Assembly (NCBI GenBank): GCA_964418255.1
Contig: CAYQKV010000001.1
Span: 150,901 to 214,900 of the forward strand
Direction: 5' to 3'
Source: an uncultured Christensenella sp.
GTDB taxonomy: Bacteria > Bacillota > Clostridia > Christensenellales > DTU072
Length of the DNA stretch: 64,000 nucleotides
This document shows positions 17,601-64,000 of the stretch, piece after piece. The notes under the pieces are model-generated. The model was not told the DNA's origin, searched no databases, and saw only the letters and a program-made list of their open reading frames with translations. The translations under genes were made by a program, and so were the position numbers. Position 1 is the stretch's first letter. Each line of letters begins with the position of its first letter.

Positions 17601-17675
17601 TGGTGACTCCTAGGAGATTCGAACTCCTGTAGCCGCCGTGAGAGGGCGGAGTCTTAACCGCTTGACCAAGGAGCC
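17601..17675 (-). tRNA. tRNA-Glu, anticodon CUC, CCA encoded
   Basis: Hand-folded cloverleaf: acceptor GGCTCCT/AGGAGTC (one G-U), D-arm GTCAAGCGGTTAAGAC, anticodon stem CCGCC/GGCGG with loop CT-CTC-AC, T-arm AGGAG-TTCGAAT-CTCCT, discriminator A, CCA. Near-identical scaffold to B. subtilis tRNA-Glu(UUC). Confidence 0.9.
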
Positions 17676-22475: not shown

Positions 22476-22690
22476 CTAAACACGCGCAAAGTGGAGAGAT
22501 TGCGTTGATTTTTTTCGTAAGTGAACCGTCGCTGTACTATCGTACAGTAGGTGAAACTTACGGAAAAGTGGAAAAAACTTTAATTTTATCCGCTTTTCAC
22601 AATAATAAGAGGAAAAATTTTTCTTTAATTATTTTCGCATAGCTTTTACGGACGCAAATAAACGCGATATATCCACTCCTAAACACGCGC
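22476..22690 (+). repeat. Copy 1 of a roughly 200-bp TIR-bounded intergenic element (MITE-like), including its flanking direct repeats
   Basis: Direct repeat CTAAACACGCGC at 22476..22487 and 22679..22690. Ends aaAGTGGAGAGATTGCGTTG and CGCGATATATCCACTCC are inverted repeats. Homologous to 51789..52006 in reverse orientation. Confidence 0.7.
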
Positions 22691-22695
22691 TCCGC

Positions 22696-22723
22696 TTGAC
22701 TTTTACTTTTATTTATATATAAT
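22696..22723 (+). promoter_or_regulatory. Sigma-A-type promoter of the RluA-family gene; apparently leaderless
   Basis: TTGACT-16 nt-TATAAT. 8 nt (AAATAAAT, no SD) lie between the -10 and the ATG at 22732. Confidence 0.7.
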
Positions 22724-22731
22724 AAATAAAT

Positions 22732-23469
22732 ATGAAACAAGAATTTACATCGGAAAATTTACAGGTAGTGTACGAAGATAACCATATCATCGCAATAGTT
22801 AAGCCGCAAAACGTTCCGTCGTGCCCCGACGAAACCGGCGATAAGGACGCGCTGAGCACGGTTAAAGATTATCTTATAAAAAAATATAACAAATCCGGAG
22901 ACGCTTACGTCGGACTTATTCATCGTCTCGACCGACCGACCGGCGGAGTAATGGTTTTCGCAAAAACTTCCAAAGCCGCCTCGCGTATGTGCGAAGCTAT
23001 GAAAAACGGCGATTTCGAAAAGCGCTATTTCGCCGTTGTCGTAGGAGTGCCCAGAGAAAAATCCATACTGGGACTTACCAACTATCTTCTCAAAGATTCC
23101 TCTAAAAATATGGTTTACGCCGTCCCTATGGCTACCGAAGGCGCCAAAAAAGCCGTTCTCGATTACACCACTCTCGACGTAAAAGACAATCTTTCGCTTG
23201 TTAGCGTAAAACTTCACACCGGACGCGCGCATCAGATACGCGTACAAATGCAAACTCTCGGACACCCTCTTTTCGGCGACCAGCGTTACGGCGCAAACAA
23301 ATCTCCCGCAGGATACAACCTCGCTTTGTGGGCGGTGGAACTTAAACTTACTCACCCCGTAACCAAAGAACGTATGGTTTTCAGGGTTTATCCCCCCGTC
23401 GACAACGTTCCGTGGAAATTTTTCGACGTGTCGCGCTATCTTTCGATTTCAATTAAAGATAACTATTAA
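22732..23469 (+). CDS. RluA-family pseudouridine synthase (no S4 domain)
   Basis: 245 aa. Catalytic HRLDRPTGGVMVF motif. HTGRAHQIRVQM motif. Confidence 0.88.
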   Translation: MKQEFTSENLQVVYEDNHIIAIVKPQNVPSCPDETGDKDALSTVKDYLIKKYNKSGDAYVGLIHRLDRPTGGVMVFAKTSKAASRMCEAMKNGDFEKRYFAVVVGVPREKSILGLTNYLLKDSSKNMVYAVPMATEGAKKAVLDYTTLDVKDNLSLVSVKLHTGRAHQIRVQMQTLGHPLFGDQRYGANKSPAGYNLALWAVELKLTHPVTKERMVFRVYPPVDNVPWKFFDVSRYLSISIKDNY

Positions 23470-23538: not shown

Positions 23539-24273
23539 TTACAAAGATTCAATCATCATTTTATCGGCGACGAGCGCAATAAGTTCTCCGTTCGTCGGTT
23601 TTTCTCCCTTGTTATAAATTTTAATTCCGAAAATCGCGTTTATGTTTTCGATTTTTCCTCTGTTCCACGCGACCTCGATTGCGTGCCTTATCGCTCTCTC
23701 TACTTTGCTCGGCGAAGTTTGATAAATCTGAGCTATCGTAGGATATAATTTTTTGGTAATCGAATTTATCATTTCGGGATACGCAACCGCCAGTTTTACA
23801 GCCTCTCTCAGAAACTGATACCCCTTTATGTGCGGCGGTATTCCCGCACGGATAAAAATACTGCTTAACCTCTCGTCGATATTTCTTATCCCGGCGTTAA
23901 GTTTTACGCTTACCGTCTGCTGTATCATAAATCTAAGCAGTTGAGTACGCATTTCTATAAAAGAATACGGTTTATAAAGGCATACTTCGTGCGGTATCGC
24001 TCCGAGCGCGCCGTCTACTTCGTCCTCCATATTTTTACTCAGAAGAATAATCGAAGCCCCTCTTTCCCGACAGGCAGTCGCTATCTCCTTGCAACGCTCG
24101 AACGCAACGTCAATTACCAGACCCTTTACGTCCGCCGTCCTCAGAATATCCGAAACTTCTTTTGCCGTTTGACAGGCAATAAGATTTATATCGGCGTCGT
24201 CGGCAAAGAATGCTACCGCGTTTGCCGATAACGACCCGTTTGTTTCGCAAAATGCTACGTTAAATTGTTTCAT
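23539..24273 (-). CDS. spo0A: Spo0A-family response regulator with an atypical receiver domain
   Basis: The C-terminal domain is near-canonical Spo0A_C (GIPPHIKGYQFLREAV...SPSKVERAIRHAIEVAWNRG...KPTNGELIALVADK). ATG at 24273 with GGAGG 4 nt upstream. The receiver keeps the D (VIDV), S and K positions, but the acidic pair reads C-E. Confidence 0.85.
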   Translation of the reverse strand: MKQFNVAFCETNGSLSANAVAFFADDADINLIACQTAKEVSDILRTADVKGLVIDVAFERCKEIATACRERGASIILLSKNMEDEVDGALGAIPHEVCLYKPYSFIEMRTQLLRFMIQQTVSVKLNAGIRNIDERLSSIFIRAGIPPHIKGYQFLREAVKLAVAYPEMINSITKKLYPTIAQIYQTSPSKVERAIRHAIEVAWNRGKIENINAIFGIKIYNKGEKPTNGELIALVADKMMIESL

Positions 24274-24324
24274 AGTCCTCCATAAAAACACATTAAAAGT
24301 TTTTATTCTGTGTTTTGTGACAAT

Positions 24325-24353
24325 ATAATAACACATTTTACGTAACTTGTAAA
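24325..24353 (-). promoter_or_regulatory. Sigma-A-type promoter of the spo0A-like gene
   Basis: Minus strand TTTACA-17 nt-TATTAT with TG extension. Confidence 0.55.
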
Positions 24354-27284: not shown

Positions 27285-27375
27285 GGAGAAATACCCAAGT
27301 GGCTGAAGGGGCTCCCCTGCTAAGGGAGTAGTACGGTGAAACGTAGCTCGGGTTCAAATCCCGATTTCTCCGCCA
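27285..27375 (+). tRNA. tRNA-Ser, anticodon GCU, long variable arm, CCA encoded
   Basis: Acceptor GGAGAAA/TTTCTCC, anticodon stem CTCCC/GGGAG with loop CT-GCT-AA, variable arm GTAGTACGGTGAAACGTAGC, T-arm TCGGG-TTCAAAT-CCCGA, discriminator G, CCA. Confidence 0.9.
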
Positions 27376-50743: not shown

Positions 50744-51720
50744 ACGTTCACTCCGTCCGGAATAAATAATTTTTTCGCTAATCCTATAGCGTAAGTATCG
50801 CTCATCGACGCGAGATAGTCGCACACGAACGTCGTCACGTCGGTAACGCACTCGGGGTGCGGAACTTCGTCGGGGTGAGTGATAAAGTATTTGAAAAGCA
50901 TATTGAGCATTCTGTCCGCTTTGCGCTGCAAGACTTCGCCGTTGCTGGTAAAATAAACCCTCTCAAACATAAAATCTCTGAGTTTATTCATATAGTATGA
51001 ACCTTCGTCGCTCAAAGAAATTTTATTTTTTTCATAGCTGTGCTCGACTATATCTTTTACGAGCGTGTTAATTCTGTCGCCTTTGGTCTTTCCGAGGTAT
51101 TCCACGCAATCGCGCGGCAAATCCTCTTCGCCTATTACTCCCGCTCTTACCGCGTCGCTTATATCGTGGTTTATGTATGCGATTCTGTCGGCGTATGAAA
51201 CAACCTTTCCTTCGAGAGTACAGGGATTTCCGCTGCTCTTATGTTCGAGTATGCCGTCTCTCACTTCGTAAGTAAGGTTGAGCCCTTTGCCGTCGTTTTC
51301 AAGTAAATCTACTACGCGAAGGCTTTGCTCGTTATGATAAAAATGCCCCGTAAGCGCGTTTAAGACGCGTTCGCCCGCGTGTCCGAAAGGCGTATGTCCG
51401 AGGTCGTGCCCGAGCCCTATCGCTTCGGTCAAATCCTCGTTGAGTAAAAGCGCGCGCGAAATCGTCCTCGCAATCTGCGTAACTTCAAGCGTATGTGTAA
51501 GTCGGGTACGAAAATGGTCGTCGAGCGGGCAAAGAAAAACCTGCGTTTTGTGTTTCAGCCGACGGAACGCCTTACAATGAATTATTCTGTCTCTGTCGCG
51601 CTGGTACTCCGTTCTATACGGACAAGGCTCGATTTCCGTCTGTCTCCCTCGCGTTTCTTCGCTCTTCTGCGCATACGGACTGAGAAATTTCCGTTCATAC
51701 TCTAATTGATGCTCTTTCAT
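50740..51720 (-). CDS. dGTPase-like HD-domain deoxynucleoside triphosphate triphosphohydrolase
   Basis: HD motif (RLTHTLEV...HDLGHTPFGH). I prefer the ATG at 51720 (GGGAGG upstream). An alternative ATG at 51744 lies 8 nt after a TATAAT box. Confidence 0.8.
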   Translation of the reverse strand: MKEHQLEYERKFLSPYAQKSEETRGRQTEIEPCPYRTEYQRDRDRIIHCKAFRRLKHKTQVFLCPLDDHFRTRLTHTLEVTQIARTISRALLLNEDLTEAIGLGHDLGHTPFGHAGERVLNALTGHFYHNEQSLRVVDLLENDGKGLNLTYEVRDGILEHKSSGNPCTLEGKVVSYADRIAYINHDISDAVRAGVIGEEDLPRDCVEYLGKTKGDRINTLVKDIVEHSYEKNKISLSDEGSYYMNKLRDFMFERVYFTSNGEVLQRKADRMLNMLFKYFITHPDEVPHPECVTDVTTFVCDYLASMSDTYAIGLAKKLFIPDGVNV

Positions 51721-51752: not shown

Positions 51753-51781
51753 ATTATACCAAATACGCCGTCTTTTTTCAA
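51753..51781 (-). promoter_or_regulatory. Sigma-A-type promoter of the dgt-like/pcrA/ligA unit
   Basis: Minus strand TTGAAA-17 nt-TATAAT. Confidence 0.7.
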
Positions 51782-51788
51782 GCGAATA

Positions 51789-52006
51789 TCACTCTTTAGG
51801 AGTGGATATATCGCGTTGCTTTACGCCCGTAAAAACATATATAAACTAATTCAAAAAGAGCGTTTTTTTTGCCAATATTGCAAATAAGCGGATGAAAATC
51901 ATAGTTTTTATGGGCTTTTCCGTAAGTTTCACCTACCGTACGTCGGTACGGCGACGGTTCACTTACGAAAAAAATCAACGCAATCTCTCCACTCCGTCGC
52001 TCTTTA
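51789..52006 (-). repeat. Copy 2 of the TIR-bounded intergenic element (reverse orientation), including its flanking direct repeats
   Basis: Direct repeats TCACTCTTTA (51789..51798) and TCGCTCTTTA (51997..52006). Ends GGAGTGGATATATCGCG (51799..51815) and CGCAATCTCTCCACTCC (51979..51995). A 79-nt block differs from copy 1 at only 5 positions. Confidence 0.7.
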
Positions 52007-52044: not shown

Positions 52045-52073
52045 AAAAAAGGTTCTCTTTCGAGAACCTTTTT
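52045..52073. terminator. Bidirectional-looking intrinsic terminator after the trpB-like gene
   Basis: AAAAAAGGTTCTC-tttc-GAGAACCTTTTT. Confidence 0.85.
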
Positions 52074-52092: not shown

Positions 52093-53484
52093 TTAGTTGT
52101 ATAAACTGTTTTGCGGAATGTCGGGCAACTGAGCGATTGACTTAGCCAAATCTTCGTCGGTGGGGATATAGTCCGTCATCGTTCCGTCGTTAAACGATTT
52201 GTATGCGGTCAGGTCGAAATAACCCGTTCCCGTCAAACCGAAGAGAATAACTTTCTTTTCGCCCGTTTCTTTACATTTCAACGCTTCGTCCATAGCGACC
52301 TTGATAGCGTGCGCGCTTTCCGGCGCGGGGAAAATTCCTTCGCATTTAGTGAATTTTTCCGCAGCTTCGAAGACTTTTGTCTGCTCTACCGAAGTAGCTT
52401 CCATATATCCGTCGTGATAGAGTTTACTGAGTATCGGGCTCATCCCGTGGTATCTAAGTCCACCCGCGTGATTGGAAGAAGGCATAAAGTTACTTCCGAG
52501 GGTGTACATCTTTGCAAGAGGAGTCATTTTGCCCGTATCGCAGAAGTCGTATTTATAAACGCCTCTCGTGAGAGAAGGACAACTTGCGGGTTCTACCGCA
52601 ATGAATTTGTAATCCGCCTCTCCTCTGAGTTTTTCACCCATAAACGGCGCAATCAGACCGCCGAGGTTGCTTCCGCCTCCCGCGCAACCGATTATAATAT
52701 CGGGTTTAACGCCGTATTTATCCAACGCGACTTTGCTTTCGAGACCGATAATGCTCTGATGCAACACGACCTGGTCGAGCACGCTGCCGAGGACGTAACG
52801 GGAATTCGGCACGCTCAGAGCACATTCAACCGCTTCGCTTATCGCGCAACCGAGACTTCCGCCCGTTCCGGGGAATTCTTCGAGAATTTTTCTTCCCACG
52901 TTTGTCGTATTGCTCGGGCTGGGCACCACGTTTGCTCCGTAAGTTCTCATAACCTCTTTTCTGAAAGGTTTCTGCTCGCTGCTCACCTTAACCATAAAGA
53001 CGTCGAGGGGAATTTTGTAGAACGCGCACGCCATAGACAGCGCGGTTCCCCACTGTCCGGCGCCGGTTTCTGTCGTGAGGTGGGTAATTCCCTGTTCTTT
53101 TGCGTAGTAAACCTGCGCTATTGCCGAATTGAGTTTATGCGAACCCGAAGTGTTGTTTCCCTCGAATTTATAATAAATTTCCGCGGGAGTATCGAGTTCT
53201 TTTTCCAACCAATACGCTCTTACGAGTGGCGACGGACGGAACATTTTATAAAAATCTCTGATTCCTTCGGGTATTTCTATATACTGCGTCGTCTGGTCGA
53301 GTTCCTGTTTTATCAATTCGTCGCAGAAAACGGGTCTGAGGTCGTCCGCGGTAGCCGGTTGAAGGGTAGCGGGGTTAAGATAAGGCGCGTGTTTATCTTT
53401 CATATCCGCTCTGAGGTTATACCAACATTTAGGCAATTCCTGTTCCGATAAGTAAATCTTTGTAGGAATGTTCTTCTGTTTCAT
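52093..53484 (-). CDS. trpB: TrpB-like PLP enzyme (tryptophan synthase beta chain, long TrpB2-type form), stand-alone
   Basis: 463 aa. PLP-lysine region GNNTSGSHKLNSA, GAGQWG and GCAGGGSNLGG motifs. The long N-terminal extension is typical of TrpB2. Preceded by a Trp T-box. Confidence 0.85.
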   Translation of the reverse strand: MKQKNIPTKIYLSEQELPKCWYNLRADMKDKHAPYLNPATLQPATADDLRPVFCDELIKQELDQTTQYIEIPEGIRDFYKMFRPSPLVRAYWLEKELDTPAEIYYKFEGNNTSGSHKLNSAIAQVYYAKEQGITHLTTETGAGQWGTALSMACAFYKIPLDVFMVKVSSEQKPFRKEVMRTYGANVVPSPSNTTNVGRKILEEFPGTGGSLGCAISEAVECALSVPNSRYVLGSVLDQVVLHQSIIGLESKVALDKYGVKPDIIIGCAGGGSNLGGLIAPFMGEKLRGEADYKFIAVEPASCPSLTRGVYKYDFCDTGKMTPLAKMYTLGSNFMPSSNHAGGLRYHGMSPILSKLYHDGYMEATSVEQTKVFEAAEKFTKCEGIFPAPESAHAIKVAMDEALKCKETGEKKVILFGLTGTGYFDLTAYKSFNDGTMTDYIPTDEDLAKSIAQLPDIPQNSLYN

Positions 53485-53513: not shown

Positions 53514-53760
53514 AAAAAACGGTGAACTCGCTTTGGGACGAATTCACCGTGTTGCCACCCAATTTCATAACCTGTTAAAGCTACCTCTTTACTCGATACT
53601 ATCATATCGATTCCCTGTTACGTCGGAACCACGTCGGAAACTACTCGAATTCTTTCGCCCCCGCCCTCAATAGTCCATTCGGCATATCTCCGCTATTTCG
53701 TCGCACCAACCCGAAACTCTCTGAAAACCTCGAAACGCTTACTACTCTATCTCAACGGTT
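53514..53760 (-). promoter_or_regulatory. T-box riboswitch leader, specifier UGG (Trp), with terminator/antiterminator
   Basis: Minus strand elements: AGTA, the AGAGA box (CAGAGAGT), distal GGTGCGA, specifier loop GAA-TGG-A (TGG = 53677..53675), the T-box sequence AAATTGGGTGGCAACACGG (53569..53551), and the terminator ACGGTGAATTCG...CGAGTTCACCGT plus TTTTTT (53550..53514). Confidence 0.85.
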
Positions 53761-53775
53761 TATTAAGTTATTTTT

Positions 53776-63487: not shown

Positions 63488-64000
63488 AGTCCTAATTCCT
63501 CCGGGCTCATCTGACTTAGAGCAATGTCACGGTAAAGCTGACAATTTCTTATCAATTCCGAGTGTTTGCCCTTTCCTACCATCTTTCCGTCGTCCATAAC
63601 GATGATTTCGTCCGCGTCCATTATGGTTCCTATACGTTGCGCGACGATGATAACTATACTTTCTTTCGTCACTTCTTTAAGCGCGGTACGCAAACGTTTA
63701 TCCGTCTTGAAGTCGAGCGCGCTGAAACTGTCGTCGAATATGTAAATTTCCGGTCTGCGGGTAACCGCGCGCGCTATGGAAAGTCTTTGTTTCTGTCCGC
63801 CGGAGAAGTTCTGTCCGCCCTGCTCTACCGTGTAGTCGAGCTGTCCTTCCTTTTCTTTGACGAACGCGTCGCTCTGCGCTATTCTGAGCGCGTCCCACAT
63901 TTCATCTTCGGTTGCGTCTTCCTTTCCGTAACGCAGGTTGTCCGCAATCGTACCGCTGAACAGTATGCTCTTTTGAGGAACGAAACCGATTTTCTTTCTG
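63484..64000 (-). CDS. ABC exporter half-transporter, C-terminal ATPase part only (partner of 61559..63487); the gene continues past the window end
   Basis: The frame is open to base 64000 (hand translation ...IGFVPQKSILFSGTIADNLRYGKEDATEDEMWDAL...). FSGGQKQRLSIARA signature and IYIFDDSFSALD Walker B. Confidence 0.85.
   Translation of the reverse strand, partial: RKKIGFVPQKSILFSGTIADNLRYGKEDATEDEMWDALRIAQSDAFVKEKEGQLDYTVEQGGQNFSGGQKQRLSIARAVTRRPEIYIFDDSFSALDFKTDKRLRTALKEVTKESIVIIVAQRIGTIMDADEIIVMDDGKMVGKGKHSELIRNCQLYRDIALSQMSPEELGL

Follow-up and report, generated by a model that had tools for sequence, protein, structure and literature searches.

Bacterial MITEs such as Correia/NEMIS of Neisseria, RUP of Streptococcus pneumoniae and ERIC of enterobacteria are elements of about 100-400 bp that contain no gene. 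They have terminal inverted repeats (TIRs) and a target-site duplication, and lie in intergenic DNA in multiple copies that are present or absent between related genomes, with ends that pair as a long stem when folded as RNA. Bacterial MITEs often adjoin genes and promoters (PMC3184786, PMC2229807), and the duplications of prokaryotic MITEs are usually TA or 2-10 bp in length (PMC11602168). The bcr1 repeat of the Bacillus cereus group, in the Firmicutes, is about 155 bp long, has the traits of a mobile element and 5-bp direct repeats, and has been shown to be transcribed (PMC3184786). It adopts a cruciform-like fold with independent stem-loops, in which there are some compensatory changes together with repeated loss of stability among the copies (PMC3184786). 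Elements of the IS4 family, including IS231/MIC231, make duplications of 10-13 bp and are conserved at the left extremity beyond the inverted repeat, and IS231/MIC231 has non-autonomous derivatives in which the ends are conserved and the middle is variable (PMC2266710). Derivatives of the family are recognised by 5'-CA(T) or -AATR termini combined with duplications of 8-13 bp.

We have analyzed a hairpin in a 64-kb stretch of DNA from the Christensenellales (the window, meaning the whole stretch). The hairpin sits within the conserved left arm of a repeat of ~195 bp, and the repeat occurs twice in the window, as copies of 192 and 197 bp in inverted orientation that were found as inverted-repeat pairs and by alignment. 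Probably the repeat is a small, non-autonomous, MITE-like DNA transposon of 192-197 bp, and the hairpin is one internal feature of its left arm. In common with the MITEs above, the element has TIRs and a target-site duplication, is small, gene-free and without a transposase gene, is intergenic, has ends that pair as a long stem in the RNA fold, and is dispersed in copies that are present in one genome and absent from another, where dispersal is judged from three loci with empty syntenic sites at two of them. It differs from most MITE families in the length of its duplication (11 bp), from those that are simple long palindromes in having an asymmetric internal three-tier hairpin in one arm, and from MITEs generally in that searches of plasmids, phages, species-representative genomes and JGI metagenomes yielded no similar sequence.

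In behavior, bcr1 is the closest described element, with a similarly mixed structural signal. Unlike bcr1 with its 5-bp repeats, the element has 11-bp repeats, and blastn searches of plasmids and phages, with B. cereus-group records among them, detected no relationship to bcr1, though this is not a direct comparison with bcr1. The 11-bp duplication is like that of the IS4 family, the likeness being one of duplication length; the termini begin GGAGTGG.. or AAAGTGG.., with neither the 5'-CAT nor the -AATR of the IS4 subgroups with 10-13-bp repeats (PMC2266710). No IS4-type transposase was found, and no transposase of any kind is listed in the Pfam annotation of the fetched loci, from the same species and from relatives, that together correspond to most of the window.

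Two further classes were considered and rejected. The ends of IS200/IS605-type elements have subterminal hairpins, lack TIRs and do not duplicate the target, inserting instead 3' of a fixed tetra- or pentanucleotide. Ends of that type (PATE, solo omega/reRNA) do not fit an element with inverted repeats and an 11-bp duplication, and no HEARO or omega-RNA Rfam match was obtained. REP/BIME sequences are G+C-rich palindromic units of 20-40 nt, often clustered and without target duplication. The element is ~195 nt long, A+T-rich and single, and has duplications.

Architecture of the element and its empty sites

Reading copy 1 from its left end, we find the left inverted repeat, a conserved left arm that carries the hairpin, a variable middle, a conserved right arm and the right inverted repeat (Table 1). 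The ends, which begin GGAGTGGA..., are imperfect 20-nt TIRs of consensus GGAGTGGAkAkATyGCGTT, and they pair as a closing helix in the predicted folds. The end pattern GGAGTGGAKAKATYGCGTTG has four matches in the window against an expectation of 0.02, and these four are the ends of the two copies. The target-site duplication of 11 bp is perfect for copy 1 (11/11) and imperfect for copy 2 (9/11), in identical register. Between the two copies the left arm (81 nt) has 91% identity, rising to 100% outside the apex of the hairpin and the first three bases. The right arm (40 nt) is 82% identical, and the middle (~75 nt) is 65% identical with indels. Similarity ends abruptly at the boundaries of the element. 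The element is A+T-rich and contains no gene, having only ORFs of 45-73 aa without homologues. CGTAA in the 5' strand of the lower stem can be aligned with the CCGTAA at the right end as a continuation of the inverted repeat, and TTACGG recurs as the 3' strand of the stem. Judged from these alignments, the hairpin may be built from repeated end motifs.

Table 1. Features of the two copies present in the window, and of the adjacent promoters
Feature	Position	Strand	Basis or remark
Copy 1, 192 nt	22488..22679	+	inverted-repeat pairs; alignment of the copies; absent from relatives' syntenic rluA loci
Copy 2, 197 nt	51799..51995	-	inverted relative to copy 1; alignment of the copies; absent in relative L029/L030
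Left terminal inverted repeat, copy 1, AAAGTGGAGAGATTGCGTTG	22488..22507	+	end-pattern match
Right terminal inverted repeat, copy 1, GGAGTGGATATATCGCGTTT on the minus strand	22660..22679	-	end-pattern match
Left target-site duplication, copy 1, TAAACACGCGC	22477..22487	.	identical 11-mer on both sides
Right target-site duplication, copy 1, TAAACACGCGC	22680..22690	.	identical 11-mer; removal of 22488-22690 restores the relatives' length
Left target-site duplication, copy 2, TAAAGAGCGAC on the minus strand	51996..52006	-	9/11 against the right side
Right target-site duplication, copy 2, TAAAGAGTGAT on the minus strand	51788..51798	-	relative L029 has a single TAAAGGGAAT here
Three-tier hairpin, copy 1 (22516-22562 plus U/A extension)	22511..22567	+	predicted fold
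Apical helix and tetraloop, copy 1	22532..22547	+	sole variable part of the 79-nt block
Three-tier hairpin, copy 2 (apical part 51936-51951)	51916..51972	-	predicted fold
Native rluA promoter, TTGACT-16-TATAAT	22696..22723	+	16 nt downstream of the right end of copy 1; kept in element-free relatives
Native dGTPase promoter, TTGAAA-17-TGnTATAAT	51753..51781	-	17 nt downstream of the right end of copy 2; kept in L029/L030

Sites lacking the element are found in relatives at both loci. The rluA intergenic region is 358 nt long here, and 156-162 nt in three relatives with 83, 82 and 77% identity in RluA, whose syntenic loci contain no trace of the element. If the element and one copy of the repeat (22488-22690) are removed, the window becomes collinear with the relatives, the two divergent promoters and the rluA start being part of the alignment. 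In the relative L029/L030, with a dGTPase of 91% identity, the second locus has the trpB-like terminator followed by ~100 nt and then the same promoter, with no element, and L029 contains a single copy of the site where the window carries the duplicated TAAAGAG.. sequence. Since the syntenic loci of close relatives lack the element yet have the same promoters, we conclude that the elements are insertions. No diverged copies were detected in the relatives, whether by nhmmer over all loci or by searching 297 kb of fetched loci with a covariance model built on the left arm. In a further relative, with an 88% identical dGTPase, there is a divergent gene at the contig end (L031:1-225), ~145 nt upstream of the dGTPase start. 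Its first residues read MARKKQFNTRYSPEFKISVILDMREHG. By eye the gene resembles an IS3-type OrfA, and if this is correct it would be a second, unrelated insertion at the same promoter-proximal spot.

A third copy lies ~3.5 kb beyond window position 64000 (L037-L039:1-115; nhmmer E 6.5e-20). It is present on three contigs from different samples, each of which starts inside the copy and carries the middle, right arm and right flank; copy 3 is known without its left arm or left flank, from short-k-mer contigs that stop inside the element. It is upstream of a gene for an HTH-cupin regulator that is followed by two ABC-exporter genes, and besides L037-L039 the copy is seen in L040, from block B. The middle of copy 3 is a mosaic of stretches like copy 1 and stretches like copy 2, and its right arm has three C-to-T differences. 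There are thus at least three loci within about 45 kb, in three unrelated genomic contexts, a number that with copy 3 lacking its left arm yields no family-level statistics. Short-k-mer (Logan) contigs stop inside the element at all three loci, as expected of a repeat. The contig ends (L002-L005, L028, L037-L040) vary in position, falling at 22513, at 22540, within the T-run of copy 2 and, for copy 3, immediately after the left arm. From these varied ends we deduce that those samples contain additional copies or alleles with 30-nt stretches in common with these copies, some of them differing only in the apical loop.

Could the copies have arisen by segmental duplication or recombination rather than by transposition, with the flanking direct repeats a coincidence? 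The duplication of copy 2 is imperfect, at 9/11, and both targets begin TAAA, as such an origin might allow. Yet at copy 1 the 11/11 repeat adjoins the inverted repeats with no gap and the register is unchanged at copy 2, the similarity is lost abruptly at the boundaries of the element, the genomic contexts are three and unrelated, and the relatives have clean empty sites. We regard this origin as very improbable.

The element was not found more widely. A scan of species-representative genomes with the hairpin pattern GTGAACCGTCGN{12,24}TAGGTGAAAC found no true copy. It gave one match, in an Acidobacteriaceae MAG, that lacks the lower stem and was dismissed as a chance match. The end pattern had 13 matches in JGI metagenomes, none with the element by nhmmer, and two pattern scans of viral contigs found nothing. 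Blastn with the element against plasmids and phages returned only chance fragments of ≤37 nt. A cognate autonomous IS with matching ends was not found among viral or JGI contigs using the end pattern, nor among plasmids and phages using the element.

The neighborhood of the element consists of housekeeping genes. Copies 1 and 2 are inverted repeats 29 kb apart that share a 41-nt identical stretch and flank housekeeping genes. A composite transposon made of the two inverted copies was considered and dropped on inspection by eye, the intervening 29 kb being syntenic housekeeping DNA. The trpB-like PALP gene (52093-53484) ends in a good intrinsic terminator (52046-52073), and upstream of the gene is a full-length T-box leader (53531-53764, minus strand; 113 bits against a gathering score of 93). 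The dGTPase likely starts at the ATG at 51720, in view of an RBS-like GGGAGG upstream and the 326-aa length of the closest homologue. Directly downstream of rluA is a gene of 265 aa (23539-24336, minus strand) for which the only domain listed is the Spo0A C-terminal domain (PF08769); its called length in relatives is 244, 264 or 265 aa, and in L012 the gene is split. There are two tRNA genes, at 17604-17675 (minus strand) and 27285-27372 (plus strand), the second with a long variable arm.

The three-tier hairpin and its variation

The original prediction described a lower stem in which CGTAAGT (22516-22522) pairs with ACTTACG (22556-22562), and an apex of CTGTAC-TATC-GTACAG in copy 1 and CCGTAC-CGAC-GTACGG in copy 2. 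On re-reading the sequence, both are present as described. The predicted fold has one three-tier shape that is common to both copies. The lower helix comprises 12 bp, with UUUUU/GAAAA pairing extending the 7 bp seen previously. Above this lies a 2x3 internal loop (GA/GAA) and a 3-bp tier (ACC/GGU), followed by a GUC/A internal loop and a 7-bp apical helix that is closed by a G.U pair and capped by the tetraloop. The calculated energies are -26.0 kcal/mol for copy 1 and -27.2 kcal/mol for copy 2 (z of -5.2 and -5.1 respectively), and none of 200 dinucleotide shuffles folds as well. The predicted fold thus exceeds chance, and the hairpin is predicted to form on each of the two strands of the DNA. 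A kink-turn in the GA/GAA internal loop was dropped on inspection by eye, there being no 3-nt bulge, and boxes for Spo0A, CcpA, CodY and LexA in the hairpin were likewise dropped by eye, the consensus being unmatched.

The hairpin is not an intrinsic terminator, in agreement with the original prediction. A terminator scan found no terminator-like site on either strand of either copy. A terminator has a G+C-rich hairpin and then a U-run; here the T7 run comes before the hairpin on the sense strand, and on the antisense strand the hairpin is followed by an A7 run.

On aligning the conserved block, we observe five differences between the two copies, all of them apical as had been noted. These are 22533 (T/C), 22538-22540 (TAT/CGA) and 22546 (A/G), and positions 22533 and 22546 together constitute the compensatory swap of U-A to C-G. 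The original prediction read the changes as non-synonymous, and this holds for two of the three codons affected (L/P and Y/R); the third is synonymous (T, ACA/ACG). That the block is not coding was upheld. One might suppose that it encodes a small protein, in the frame ...IFFVSEPS.Y.RTVGETYGK, since an open frame spans the block in both copies. But the 73-aa ORF across copy 2 matches only itself among 5.8 billion proteins, a search that also revealed no spurious ORF called across another copy, conservation of the frame stops at the block, the differences include L/P and Y/R, and no gene is called at copy 1 in L001. The small-protein reading is effectively refuted.

It had further been argued that the compensatory change reflects a structural constraint, and here the additional data do not bear the claim out. 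In a strain allele of copy 1 present in three samples (L001, L002 and L003), GTACAG in the 3' arm is replaced by GCACTG. This introduces A-C and U-U mismatches in place of two of the seven apical pairs, and the predicted energy changes from -26.0 to -18.9 kcal/mol, a loss of ~7 kcal/mol. Two other contigs (L004 and L005) cover the element from 22540 on, and there they agree with the window. Over the three distinct sequences, a very small sample, the 22 pairs comprise 20 that are invariant and one that is compensatory, with two broken cells, and the covariation score is equalled by 149 of 500 shuffles and so is not above the shuffled controls. The question posed was whether further copies break the helix as often as they keep it, and the little extra data obtained go against the structural claim. 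One compensated pair between paralogues, set against two uncompensated changes that break the helix, is weak support for covariation, and the evidence for selection on pairing is too thin to call the hairpin a functional RNA.

All seven variable positions of the 79-nt block are apical, five of them between the paralogues and two between strains, in a region that makes up 16 of the 79 nt. The chance of this is (16/79)^7, about 1e-5. As all the variation lies in the apical 16 nt, the apex is free to vary or hypermutable, and the rest of the arm is constrained. Replication template switching generates clustered and mirrored changes in inverted repeats, and can keep stems perfect without selection (PMC8794818, PMC7202029). 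The apical changes are like template-switch (quasipalindrome) hotspots in that they are clustered within a short inverted repeat and mirrored between its arms. In copy 2 the loop and the base after it read CGACG, a perfect reverse complement of the CGTCG that immediately precedes the helix on its 5' side, and from this sequence the three loop changes look like one event, the direction of apical change not being polarisable from two paralogues. Unlike the functional classes, template switching is a mutational process, and it accounts for the differences and not for the existence of the element. There is a general caution here, that one compensatory pair between two paralogous repeats is no evidence for RNA, because such elements are palindromic in DNA and palindromes mutate symmetrically.

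The original prediction therefore finds support in a hairpin that is real, thermodynamically exceptional and non-coding. It missed the transposon-like context of TIRs and target-site duplications, which accounts for most of the pattern.

Folding at the level of DNA or RNA

When folded in full, the sense strands of both copies have strongly negative scores (z of -6.5 for copy 1 and -6.4 for copy 2), with the paired ends closing a multibranch that includes the hairpin. For copy 1 the sense strand is at -61 kcal/mol and the antisense strand at -49.7 kcal/mol. For copy 2 the two strands are close (z of -5.9 for the antisense and -6.4 for the sense), and the helices of the middle differ between the folds of copies 1 and 2. 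In these predictions, folding on both strands is as expected of inverted repeats at the level of DNA, and not of a strand-specific RNA.

No Rfam 15 family reached its gathering threshold; when hits with E up to 10 were admitted, the best of them were to unrelated families, with scores far below threshold. There is no conserved or consensus promoter before the element and no terminator after it. Two divergent promoters flank copy 1, and a good terminator precedes copy 2; since the copies are also upstream of the adjacent promoters, no known transcript covers them. A cis-regulatory leader or riboswitch was rejected, the element being upstream of the -35 in all copies and absent from the orthologous loci. 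A T-box or other leader was dropped by eye as being on the wrong side of the promoter.

We have weighed whether the element might nevertheless be a functional structured RNA of ~190 nt, either an sRNA or a cis-acting RNA on a mobile unit. The T-A to C-G swap would then be a true covariation, with selection on RNA structure keeping both the long closing helix formed by the ends and the three-tier hairpin. This would accord with the sense folds of both full copies (z of -6.5 and -6.4) that place the hairpin in a multibranch, the much greater stability of the sense strand of copy 1 over its antisense strand, the one compensated pair, the perfect conservation of the left arm outside the apex, and the transcription of bcr1 (PMC3184786). 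In addition, two of the three C-to-T differences in the right arm of copy 3 would change G-C to G.U in the sense fold. Against this, there is no Rfam match even at E up to 10, no conserved promoter before or terminator after the element, and no element at the orthologous loci of close relatives. Moreover, copy 2 gives almost as good a fold from its antisense strand as from its sense strand, three samples carry an allele in which two apical pairs are broken, the covariation is within the range of shuffles, and the helices of the middle are not kept between copies. We consider such an RNA unlikely. Inverted repeats at the DNA level explain the folds, and nothing requires RNA.

Transposition and the proximity of promoters

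Returning to the MITE-like transposon, we can suggest how the features of the element might have arisen. A DDE-type transposase encoded elsewhere by an IS would bind the inverted repeats and the adjacent subterminal sequence, cut the target with an 11-bp stagger and insert the element. Between old copies the left ~80 nt and the right ~40 nt are near-identical while the middle has drifted to 65%. The arms are probably conserved because only copies with intact ends still transpose, or because gene conversion keeps the ends uniform. Within the hairpin, the lower two tiers would belong to the constrained end sequence, and the apical 16 nt would be dispensable and free to vary. The symmetric T-A to C-G change could be due to weak selection favoring a hairpin in RNA or in single-stranded DNA, or to a template switch that mutated a perfect palindrome; it is not a demonstration of a functional RNA. 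Several observations count against a transposon, among them the unusual length of the duplication, the small number of loci and the constant spacing to promoters described below. No autonomous partner with the same ends was found, and we infer the dependence on a transposase. In addition, the identity of the non-apical positions of the left arm (74/74) exceeds what a transposase binding a 20-nt repeat should need.

The position of the element relative to promoters is regular. The distance from its right end to the -35 hexamer is 16, 17 and 16 nt in copies 1, 2 and 3 (22679/22696, 51799/51781 and L037:115/132), and the orientation is the same in all three. The promoter-like sites are strong, matching at 11/12, 11/12 with TG, and 10/12, and the right inverted repeat thus falls at about -71 to -52. 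The rluA and dGTPase promoters are native and not carried by the element, as they are kept in relatives that lack it. In the rluA promoter the -10 hexamer ends 8 nt before the ATG (22696-22734), an arrangement that is conserved in the relatives, and from this short distance the rluA mRNA is probably leaderless or nearly so. The spacing is tighter than expected, though three cases noticed post hoc are no proof. To our knowledge, a fixed spacing of 16-17 nt to the -35 hexamer is not a described property of families of the Correia/NEMIS, RUP or ERIC type, and a constant spacing in one orientation is not accounted for by simple transposition.

Such spacing would be explained if the element were a promoter-homing transposon, or a cis-regulatory module of mobile DNA, that inserts or persists at just one fixed position upstream of sigma-A promoters. 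The right inverted repeat (centered near -61.5) or the GTAC-N4-GTAC apex would then bind a protein that modulates the adjacent promoter or directs insertion. All three copies are 16-17 nt from the -35 in a constant orientation next to promoters that are native and not carried by the element, and with ~60-80 nt of usable intergenic space we make a rough, post hoc estimate of about 2e-4 for the probability of this. However, the pattern was spotted post hoc in only three copies, and the genes downstream, for an RluA-family synthase, a dGTPase and an HTH-cupin regulator, have no obvious common regulon. No binding protein or family of sites was identified, and in a compact genome purifying selection against other sites would alone enrich positions just upstream of promoters. 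On balance this explanation seems to us improbable. We attach a similarly low probability to the stronger proposal that the unit inserts or survives only 16-17 bp upstream of a sigma-A -35 in one orientation, with the invariant 80-nt left arm as a functional structure. If so, the left arm, including the lower tiers of the hairpin, may act in the choice of target or in control of the adjacent promoter.

As a MITE-like transposon, the element would represent a previously uncatalogued family in an uncultured gut-type lineage of Clostridia, the Christensenellales, and its recognition is of use in annotation. Short-k-mer assemblies break at every copy of the element, and the inverted copies 29 kb apart could mediate inversion of the chromosome. 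If the spacing were to hold genome-wide, it would suggest either that insertion is directed to promoters or that the element has been recruited for regulation. Were promoter homing true, the element would be a mobile cis-regulatory module of a kind not described in bacteria.
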